DNA of 64,000 bases, taken from positions 24,238 to 88,237 of the forward strand of contig JBDRPD010000025.1 in NCBI GenBank assembly GCA_043827405.1, written 5' to 3'. The position numbers were made by a program, and so were the translations under genes. The DNA is from Elusimicrobiota bacterium. Its GTDB lineage: Bacteria > Elusimicrobiota > Elusimicrobia > UBA1565. The notes beneath the pieces were generated by a model. The model saw only the letters and a list, made by a program, of their open reading frames with translations, was not told the origin of the DNA and made no database searches. How positions within the stretch are numbered: the first letter of the stretch is position 1; the number at the start of each line of letters is the position of its first letter. This document shows positions 27,298-38,664 of the stretch, piece after piece.

Positions 27298-27457
27298 GCC
27301 GGCTCACAGAGTGCCGCGGGCGGCGAATCTTAGGCGCGCGGCGGCGGGGTGAAATCAAGCGCGAAACCGCCTTGGCCGGAGTGAGCCAAAAGGCACCCGA
27401 AAACAGCGCGAGAATGCCGAGGGCTCCGCGGCGGGTTACTTTACCGGTGGCAGGCAT
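27287..27457 (-). CDS. Possible small membrane protein between actA and actB
   Basis: MPATGKVTRRGALGILALFSGAFW...; fills the gap and overlaps both neighbours. Confidence 0.35.
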   Translation of the reverse strand: MPATGKVTRRGALGILALFSGAFWLTPAKAVSRLISPRRRAPKIRRPRHSVSRHGR

Positions 27458-35399: not shown

Positions 35400-35456
35400 C
35401 CTACCCCTGCGTGATGGGCGACAATGGAGAACATAAATCATCCAGGAGGAACTGCA

Positions 35457-37070
35457 ATGAAGATGTTCTGCAACCAGTGCGAACAGACGGTCCGCGGAAA
35501 GGGCTGCGACACCATAGGCGTCTGCGGAAAGACCCCCGAGAACTCCGGCATCATGGACGAGCTGATCCATACCTGCCACGAGATCTCCCAATACGCTTTT
35601 GCCGCCGGCAAGCTCGGCAAGACGGAGAAAAAAGTCGACGTATTTCTAGTGCAGGCCCTATTCACGACCGTCACCAATGTCAACTTCGATCCCGACAACC
35701 TGCGCAACTGGACCGCTGAATCCCGCGCCATGCTGCAGCTCGCGAAGAATACATACGCTGCAGCGGCCGGCGATACTCAGCCGATCGTCCCGGCGGCCAT
35801 CGAGACTTTCCCGGCCGAGGGAATTGAGAAGCACGGCCCCGACGTCGCCGGACTCCAGCAGATGATCCTATACGGTCTTAAGGGAATGGCCGCTTATGCC
35901 GATCATGCCCGGGTCCTGGGCGTGGAGGATGCCTCGGTATACGCTTTCTTTCACGAAGCCCTGGCGTTTCTCGCCGCAGATCCCACCGATATTGACGCCC
36001 TCACCGGAATGTCGCTGCGGGTGGGAGAGGTCAACCTGCGCGTTATGGAAATGCTCGACCGCGCCAATACCGATACCTACGGCCATCCTGAACCGACCGC
36101 GGTCCGGATCACGCCGCTCAAGGGAAAGGCTATCCTGGTCTCGGGACATGATCTCAAAGACCTCGAGGTGCTGCTGAAGATTACCGCGGGGACCGGCGTC
36201 AACGTCTACACCCACGGCGAGATGCTTCCCGGCAACGCCTATCCCGGTCTCAAAAAGTATCCGCACCTGGCCGGCAATTTCGGCGGCGCCTGGCAGGACC
36301 AGCAGAAGGAATTCGCAACCTTCCCCGGCCCCATCCTGATGACGACCAACTGCATCCAGAAGCCGCGCGCGAGCTATATGGACCGCATTTACACCACCGG
36401 ACTCGTGGCCTGGCCCGGAGTCCGGCACCTCGAGCATGCGCAGTTCGACGTTCTGATCGCGGCGGCGAAAAAAGAAGCCGGGTTCGCCGAAGACGCCCCC
36501 GAGAAGCGGATCACCATCGGCTTCGCCCGCAACGCCGTCATGGGCGCCGCGGAAAAGGTCGTGGCGGCGGTCAAGGCGGGAAAGCTGCGCCGCTTCTTCC
36601 TGATCGGCGGCTGCGACGCCGCCAAGCCGGGACGCAGCTATTACACCGAACTGGCCCAGGCCGTGCCGCAAGACTGCGCCATCCTGACTCTGGCCTGCGG
36701 CAAATACCGGTTCAATAAAATGGAGTTCGGCGATATCGACGGGATTCCGCGCCTGCTCGACGTCGGCCAATGCAATGACGCCCATTCCGCGATCCAGATC
36801 GCCCTGGCGCTGGCCAAGGCCTTCGATTGCGGGGTCAACGACCTGCCGCTATCCATGATCCTGAGCTGGTATGAGCAGAAGGCGGTATGCATCCTGCTGT
36901 CTTTGCTTCACCTGGGAATCAGGGGAATTCGGCTGGGGCCGACCTTGCCGGCCTTCGTGGGTCCGGAAGTCCTCAAGGTTCTATCCGAGAAATTCGACCT
37001 CAAGCCCATCACCACGGCGGAGCAGGATCTCAAGGACATCCTGCCGGAGAGGGAATTGGCAGCGGCCTAA
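35457..37070 (+). CDS. hcp: Hybrid cluster protein (hydroxylamine/NO reductase)
   Basis: MFCNQCEQT...GC...GVCGK, SGHDL, YTHGEMLP, TTNC, GGCD, GQCND, SWYEQKA. Confidence 0.96.
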   Translation: MKMFCNQCEQTVRGKGCDTIGVCGKTPENSGIMDELIHTCHEISQYAFAAGKLGKTEKKVDVFLVQALFTTVTNVNFDPDNLRNWTAESRAMLQLAKNTYAAAAGDTQPIVPAAIETFPAEGIEKHGPDVAGLQQMILYGLKGMAAYADHARVLGVEDASVYAFFHEALAFLAADPTDIDALTGMSLRVGEVNLRVMEMLDRANTDTYGHPEPTAVRITPLKGKAILVSGHDLKDLEVLLKITAGTGVNVYTHGEMLPGNAYPGLKKYPHLAGNFGGAWQDQQKEFATFPGPILMTTNCIQKPRASYMDRIYTTGLVAWPGVRHLEHAQFDVLIAAAKKEAGFAEDAPEKRITIGFARNAVMGAAEKVVAAVKAGKLRRFFLIGGCDAAKPGRSYYTELAQAVPQDCAILTLACGKYRFNKMEFGDIDGIPRLLDVGQCNDAHSAIQIALALAKAFDCGVNDLPLSMILSWYEQKAVCILLSLLHLGIRGIRLGPTLPAFVGPEVLKVLSEKFDLKPITTAEQDLKDILPERELAAA

Positions 37071-37084
37071 TCCCGCTACGGCGC

Positions 37085-37123
37085 AAAAACAGCGGCGGCG
37101 GATGCCCAAGGCTCCGCCGCCGT
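37085..37123. terminator. Probable bidirectional intrinsic terminator
   Basis: GCGGCGGCGGA/TCCGCCGCCGT stem, A tract on the left and T-rich tail on the right. Confidence 0.7.
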
Positions 37124-37261
37124 TTGCTTTCCCGAGACAGAAAAAGAAGGTTTTTGGGGTACAAAATCAGAGGGCGTGACAACTGGCGCCGTTGGATATC
37201 GACCGTTGTCCCGCCCTCGAATCCGTTGCCGGACCCCTCGAAAGGGCACCTCCTCGGCAAC
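37085..37261 (-). ncRNA. Candidate structured small RNA (~177 nt)
   Basis: TTGACG-16-TATACT promoter (37295-37268), two long hairpins, terminator; no credible ORF. Confidence 0.55.
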
Positions 37262-37360
37262 AATATTAGTATAGCCCCAAAATTTATTTCGTCAAGGGGA
37301 AATTTCCAGAAAATTCCAAGTTTCGTATACTACCTCAGCCGCCGTTCCGGGAGGCGTAAT

Positions 37361-37654
37361 ATGCCGAGGAAGAAACGCTGCACCTACTACGAATACCGCC
37401 TGCTGGTCTCGCCCAAGCGGCGCGGCCGCAAGATGCCGGTCAACCTCGGGGAGAAGTTTCTCGACGCCATCATCGCCAGCGCCGCCAAGCTCGAGCTCGA
37501 AGTCGTGGGCGGCTTCTACCCCCGGCCCACCCGGATCGACGGCAAGGGCAAGAGCGCCCTGCAGCGCCATCCCAATCCCACCCTCGTCCGCGCTGAGCCG
37601 AAAACCGCGACGAATAAGAAGAAGGATAGCGCCGCGGATTTGAGACTGTTTTAA
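37361..37654 (+). CDS. Small basic hypothetical protein (97 aa)
   Basis: GGGAGG RBS, ATG at 37361, upstream TATACT box, GC-rich codon usage. Confidence 0.6.
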   Translation: MPRKKRCTYYEYRLLVSPKRRGRKMPVNLGEKFLDAIIASAAKLELEVVGGFYPRPTRIDGKGKSALQRHPNPTLVRAEPKTATNKKKDSAADLRLF

Positions 37655-37717
37655 GGCCCGTCCGGTATACTCAAGCAAGCCGTACTTGGCTATTTTCTAT
37701 CTGCTCGGGAGGCCGTT

Positions 37718-38664
<947 letters not shown>

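Follow-up and report, generated by a model that had tools for sequence, protein, structure and literature searches.

A standalone structured RNA, apparently of a new family, predicted in one order of Elusimicrobiota

Comparison across related genomes lends good support to the prediction that the stretch of Elusimicrobiota DNA analysed here (64,000 nucleotides, hereafter the window) encodes a member of a new family of standalone structured RNA. The predicted RNA lies on the minus strand, and its conserved unit of approximately 99 nt (37261-37163) is formed by a variable 5' domain (P1), a linker, a family-defining hairpin (P2) and a U tract. Copies of the family have their own promoter, a 3' U tract and a covarying structure, and keep no reading frame, as expected of a standalone non-coding RNA. 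RNA is very probably transcribed from these loci; its abundance and 3' end are likewise predictions from sequence. Bacterial RNA genes that are spread over an order with such covariation, and that belong to no Rfam family, are uncommon, and the family is a marker for one Elusimicrobiota order. It is apparently new to the literature: the accessible parts of the Elusimicrobiota literature on non-coding, structured or small RNA and on RNA motifs give no account of it, while supplementary motif tables and subscription journals could list the motif. An earlier note on this DNA had proposed a self-contained RNA of about 175 nt at this locus. A promoter-driven, structured and covarying RNA without an Rfam family is indeed what was found, but the proposed extent did not hold, in that homology ends at the U tract behind P2.

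At the window locus, the promoter is of the sigma70 type (TTGACG-16-TATACT, minus strand, 37295-37268, score 10/12), with the -35 box at 37295-37290, a 16-nt spacer and the -10 box at 37273-37268; a stretch of 1.5 kb has two such sites, as against 0.4 in shuffles. The predicted start (G37261) is placed 7 nt past the -10 box, at the base of hairpin 1, i.e. P1 (37225-37261), which is closed by the arms 37261-37255 and 37231-37225 and carries a 5' motif, GCCGAG(U/G)AGGUG, at 37258-37247. Hairpin 2, i.e. P2, occupies 37218-37170, and consists of a basal stem with a 1-nt bulge at 37184, one R-Y pair, a GC bulge (37187-37186), a 4-bp apical stem (37203-37200 with 37191-37188) and a variable loop. 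Promoter, start and both hairpins had been read correctly in the earlier note, which missed the U tract at 37166-37163, immediately 3' of P2, where the homologs end and where the 3' end is predicted. Since this tract is short and weak in the window copy, a read-through form of 177 nt, ending at 37085, may exist, as a local feature of this copy. The fold of the 177-nt form (z = -3.49) is equalled in stability by 0 of 200 shuffles, and hairpin 1 is missing from its minimum-energy structure; the 99-nt core folds as hairpins 1 and 2 (z = -3.14; 2 of 200 shuffles as stable).

Beyond the conserved RNA, a pyrimidine tract (37155-37139) and a last hairpin (~37127-37085) are present in the sequence as claimed. 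The convergent neighbour, hcp, encodes a hybrid-cluster (prismane) protein (35424-37070, plus strand; PF03063, E = 1e-142), and the last hairpin, which is GC-rich and has T-rich runs on both strands, lies 15-57 nt past its stop codon. Either strand can form this hairpin (-32.8 and -31.1 kcal/mol); it was not among the results of the terminator scan, and is missing in the paralog and in the closest ortholog described below. The hairpin once taken as the terminator of the RNA is real but not conserved, and is probably the terminator of hcp, which could also catch read-through of the RNA. Another hairpin of the window (27400-27446, minus strand), located past a cytochrome c3-like gene, shares 75% over 49 nt with the hairpin next to hcp (E 0.2) and is probably a further terminator.

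No known RNA family accounts for the locus. A scan of the window with Rfam 15 at the gathering threshold returned three tRNAs and nothing else; at the locus itself there were six chance-level matches, the best with 17.5 bits against a cut-off of 50, and eight homolog loci, including short and long forms, gave no match at E <= 0.5. A riboswitch or leader was considered and rejected, in that the resemblance to an SAH riboswitch reaches 16.9 bits against a cut-off of 37, and a same-strand downstream gene, of mixed function, is found in 19 of 94 copies only.

The window copy is the second of two copies of the RNA gene in this 4.3-Mb genome, the other being linked to mutL. The latter was found by DNA search behind mutL (G000:C60:38106-38218; 77% identical), and the identity covers the -10 region and hairpins 1 and 2, and nothing beyond; the RNA predicted from it (G000:C60:38127-38225) aligns with the 37261-37163 stretch only. 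Three double changes between both copies preserve pairing in the stem of hairpin 1, and a U tract directly follows hairpin 2 in each. The gene that the paralog faces ends in a hydrophobic, glycine-rich stretch. The P2 core pattern has 87 matches in the genome, from which the flanking stem keeps the two copies and three GC-rich chance sites; the idea that P2 mimics some other site of the genome was accordingly rejected. Upstream of the window copy and back to back with its promoter, there is a divergent ORF (37361-37654, plus strand) with its own promoter-like site (37303-37331), which encodes a basic protein of 97 amino acids and no known family, rich in arginine and lysine at its N-terminus, and is followed by a PALP-family cysteine synthase-like gene. 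Two homologs of this ORF (84% and 72%) bring the known sequences to three, with no Pfam match and no usable atlas match. As a partner of the RNA it was rejected because of these three sequences and because none of the other 93 copies has it as a neighbour. The window copy has its closest ortholog on a metagenome contig (L283) that holds the 72% homolog in the same back-to-back arrangement and the same cysteine synthase-like gene. There, the same promoter is followed directly by P2 (39.6 bits), and hairpin 1, with its 5' motif, is entirely absent. Past its U tract, L283 has a reading frame for a protein with a hydrophobic N-terminus, the first codons of which align with the pyrimidine tract of the window, so that the tract is possibly the decayed start of a gene for a secreted protein.

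The family was collected with models and patterns of increasing reach. A covariance model made from two sequences matched 9 of the 101 related genomes. Scanning the genome collection with a pattern gave 39 stretches, of which eight Elusimicrobia loci with a long flanking stem scored 22-50 bits and the remaining 31 below 19 bits; this places the source organism in the class Elusimicrobia of the Elusimicrobiota. With a model of P2 only (15 sequences), matches were obtained in 70 of the 101 genomes of the order, or 67 after the best matches of G024, G070 and G038 were dropped; the second matches of G055, G071 and G058 were dropped as well, all six being without a promoter and a proper stem, and four further second or antisense matches are left out of those examined. 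A refined model, and inspection of the region behind mutL in another 31 loci, brought in G002, G013, G016, G011 and, weakly, G001; the refined-model search itself matched in ten genomes, nine falsely and G002 alone truly. P2 is thereby found in approximately 72 of the 101 genomes. It was not found in the genera g15 (0/6), g23, g25 and g21 or in several single-genome genera, where part of the candidates were scored per genome. Outside the order, true copies are present in two of two genomes of family f4 of the same class, and 151 genomes drawn from the phylum yielded no further copy, the matches in G204 and G279 being plain terminators. Matches outside Elusimicrobiota (31/39 and 27/50) were rejected, the basal stem and U tract being absent from all but weak cases of 18.7 and 30.5 bits; five matches in Caldisericota lie inside a reading frame, and a strict pattern spanning P1 and P2 had one match, unsupported by the model. 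In one genus there are up to five or six matches per genome, and short and long forms often stand there in tandem. In G029, identical 86-nt copies with identical promoters (C12:25187 and 27895; L141) lie 2.7 kb apart and flank two genes, an arrangement that looks as after duplication or insertion at the RNA gene.

In the homologs collected, P2 covaries strongly. Among 89 distinct sequences, 95.3% of the P2 cells are paired (35-53% in slid controls) and double changes occur at 17 of 19 pairs, figures that are biased upwards by fitting of the alignment to the model and by the kinship of the sequences. A free alignment of 15 sequences gives 88% paired cells and double changes at 10 of 18 pairs, and double changes inside single genera are seen at 14 of the 19 pairs. 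As the sequences are related and 69 of the 94 copies come from two genera, the shuffle control overstates significance. The core of P2 follows a fixed order: a long stem, a C-G pair, one bulged base, one R-Y pair, a bulged GC, GUCS/SGAC and the loop. Pairs C20-G50 and C25-G42 are invariant, the bulge is GC in 73 of 89 sequences, and columns 22 and 47, beyond the original model, also pair (G-C 52, A-U 32). The loop is free, with 4-8 nt and 36 different sequences in 94 copies. On the proposed RNA strand, G-U exceeds A-C in P2 (53 versus 10), as expected of an RNA helix, which points to that strand as the RNA. U predominates in columns 67-70 of the tract (69, 78, 80 and 60 of 89 sequences). Two further structural candidates were rejected: pairing of the 5' motif with the P2 bulge in a pseudoknot, judged by eye, is possible in both copies of this genome and broken in G008, and a likeness to domain V of group II introns fails on the spacing of the triad.

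Around this hairpin, the anatomy of the gene was compared in 94 copies from 69 genomes. A promoter of the type TTGACN-16-TATACT precedes 87 of the 94, with a spacer of 16 nt in 81 and TATACT as the -10 box in 79 of these 87, and GGTC or GGCC stands before 84 of them; among the seven copies without the standard promoter, three are cut by contig ends and four have variant boxes. A stricter form of the promoter has 56 occurrences in all 4.3 Mb of the genome, and the presence of the promoter on 87 of 94 copies is therefore far from chance, although promoters of this type serve other loci of the order too. Predicted RNAs vary six-fold in length (55-330 nt), P2 with its U tract being the 3'-most element in every one. 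Ten of the 87 are P2 alone behind the promoter (55-57 nt), 18 have a short 5' domain, and 59 a long one, in which a stem closes 100-270 nt of repeats that are poor in A and rich in GUCG and GCCG. Lengths of the long domains are spread across all three residues modulo 3, so no reading frame is kept, and profile HMMs of these domains found nothing under E 0.1 in the genome of the window copy. The 5' motif is present in 12 of the 87 RNAs.

Conservation of P2, while the rest of the RNA varies so widely in length, suggests that the hairpin binds a protein. According to this proposal, a standalone non-coding RNA gene of one Elusimicrobiota order would extend from a near-consensus promoter to the U tract behind P2, and P2 would be the working part, i.e. 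a helix of ~19 pairs with a fixed 1-nt bulge, the GC bulge and the 4-bp apical stem. A cellular protein would recognize P2 by its shape and a few bases, and the RNA would titrate, block or tether the bound protein. The 5' domain would be an exchangeable add-on, which may be absent, a hairpin of 40 nt (as in the window) or a long stem enclosing repeats. Short members without a pairing partner, the free loop, the varied neighbours and the fixed geometry of the bulges together form the pattern of a protein-binding site, and we give protein binding through P2, as the main mode of action, a little better than an even chance. Against it, P2 appears dispensable in three genomes that keep the promoter and 5' motif, being lost in G006 and G015 and degenerate in G005; part of its conservation could also reflect terminator function. 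RRM proteins do not strictly track the RNA: they are found in 77 of 101 genomes (63 of the 72 with the RNA, 14 of the other 29), and nine RNA-positive genomes, some of them 97-100% complete, have no RRM found, so that RRM is not an obligate partner of P2. RRM proteins could, on the other hand, bind the long single-stranded 5' inserts. The GGA motifs which the earlier note offered as protein-binding sites do not carry this role, in that the AGGAGG position lacks GGA in 11 of the 12 copies with the 5' motif (the window copy is the exception), GGA occurs within the P2 loop of 7 of 94 copies, and CsrA (PF02599) was not found in the 98% complete genome (controls 3/14). Within 36000-38500, three sets of metatranscriptome contigs covered parts of hcp and cysK, with pieces that stem from other organisms, and no part of the RNA; this counts neither for nor against transcription.

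An alternative reading, which we consider unlikely, is that of a base-pairing sRNA, in which the CCTTCT tract or the 5' GAG(U/G)AGGUG would pair with ribosome-binding sites or the 3' end of 16S rRNA and P2 would be a terminator. The window copy does bear AGGAGGUG, complementary to the 16S 3' end of the same genome, and the 5' motif survives in two genomes without P2. Paralogous base-pairing sRNAs are also described from RRM-bearing bacteria: the FopS sRNAs of Bacteroides reportedly repress translation through a conserved single-stranded seed (PMC11697453), and the present family resembles them as a multicopy RNA of a lineage that bears RRM proteins. It is, however, the structure that is conserved here, and the ten P2-only RNAs, as well as L283, have no single-stranded part beyond the variable loop, so that a seed is not needed. 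The 5' motif is limited to the 12 RNAs mentioned, and the CCTTCT seed of the earlier note fails, since such a tract lies outside the conserved unit and stands behind P2 in 5 of 94 copies, the window copy included. Hfq was not found in the genome, and ProQ was found in 1 of 101 genomes.

It is also improbable that promoter and P2 form a cis element, i.e. a barrier, antisense unit, terminator or leader whose RNA product has little weight. Rough gene calls on loci of 1.6-8 kb show the first downstream gene to be convergent in 67 of 94 copies and on the same strand in 19, with none called in 8. In 56 copies the stop codon of a convergent gene comes no more than 50 nt from the 3' end, in 13 a same-strand gene is reached within 110 nt, and the L283 reading frame opens right at the U tract, three points that would suit such an element. 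The neighbours are, however, mutually unrelated (queE, S41 peptidase, amidohydrolase, kinase, hcp and others), a barrier needs neither a fixed GC bulge nor a covarying apical stem, and there is no A tract before P2, so termination on the other strand is not expected.

Distinctly doubtful is a third possibility, a diverged or replacement housekeeping RNA, which would bind polymerase as 6S RNA does or take the place of SRP RNA, in a lineage without both. Like 6S RNA (RF00013) and SRP RNA (RF00169, RF01854), the family is standalone and has a near-consensus promoter, and genomes mostly have a single syntenic copy of it, near mutL and queE. The M domain of Ffh (SRP_SPB) was found in 0 of 101 genomes (controls 14/14), in line with the statement that few Elusimicrobia have SRP (PMC7987157), a published note which the present count extends. 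Unlike these RNAs, the family has no model match at the locus, nor any Rfam match in its short or long forms; 6S and large SRP RNA had no match at E <= 1 in the genome of the window copy, and small SRP RNA had a sub-cut-off match of 22 bits at another place. Its layout of two domains or a single hairpin shows neither a rod with a central bubble nor the helix-8 loops of SRP RNA. Loss of SRP moreover reportedly reaches Elusimicrobium minutum (PMC4779614), whereas searches in most other families of the phylum gave no copy of the RNA. A repeat or mobile element acting at the DNA level (REP-like hairpin, miniature element or integration site) is very unlikely, for although one genus has multiple matches, G029 has its identical pair, and integrase, transposase and toxin-antitoxin genes each stand beside single copies, there are but two copies in 4.3 Mb here, no terminal repeats, a conserved promoter and U tract with a strand-specific G-U excess, a suspected duplicated end in G033 that did not align, and no true pattern match in viral contigs (0/34 and 0/1).

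Two other RNA systems come close to the family as protein-bound RNAs. CsrB and RsmZ have their own promoter, an intrinsic terminator, several paralogs and a length that varies with low-complexity repeats, and act by titrating a protein. The present family is similar in its promoter, intrinsic terminator, paralogs, repeats of variable length and proposed protein binding, but lacks conserved GGA loops, has no CsrA found in the genome, and concentrates its conservation on one bulged terminal hairpin, with repeats absent from the shortest members. Bacterial Y RNAs, the partners of Ro60, are ~100 nt long and have a bulged helix with GUC/GAC-like bases, as does the P2 RNA. Unlike Y RNAs, the latter has no tRNA-like domain, no Rfam match and no adjacent Ro60 gene; TROVE was found in 1 of 101 genomes and not in the genome of the window copy. 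A bolder form of the proposal, to which we give a small chance, is set in a lineage in which Hfq, CsrA, ProQ, Ro60, 6S and SRP were not found: the RNA could be the core of a new Elusimicrobia ribonucleoprotein, with P2 docking one lineage-specific protein, the 5' domain, whose A-poor repeats reach 270 nt, recruiting others, and a housekeeping or global regulatory role, possibly with a neighbouring GU-rich RNA as second component. The natural deletion variants, down to a hairpin of 55 nt, mean that a short synthetic RNA could fish the partner, and in a phylum where the usual sRNA chaperones and SRP were not found, such a partner may show how these bacteria run RNA control.

Some observations concern the surroundings of the copies. 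In 25 of 94 copies mutL is one of the two nearest genes upstream, and in 29 one of the two nearest genes downstream is queE, queC or a gene for a DnaQ-like exonuclease; the gap between them is filled by unrelated genes. The usual divergent neighbour of about 30 copies, across families, is a protein of 100-170 amino acids with a signal-peptide-like start and no Pfam match (e.g. L172:1274-1777, minus strand). Genes for tmRNA and RNase P RNA lie elsewhere in the genome. Near the mutL-linked copy there is a second candidate RNA (L261; G000:C60, minus strand, ~39150 to 38830) with the same promoter type, which has ~320 nt, 9% A, GUCGUGGCCGUU-like repeats, no Rfam match, and its own end hairpin with a conserved GAGGA loop; its basal stem matches the P2 model weakly, and hairpins of this type are present in 8 of 19 related loci scanned, in addition to this genome. 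The same promoter type is also found at G000:C63:14958 (minus strand) and in L271, L273-L275, L277 and L279, where it precedes a leader, which we take to resemble a c-di-GMP-I riboswitch, and a conserved terminator-like hairpin.
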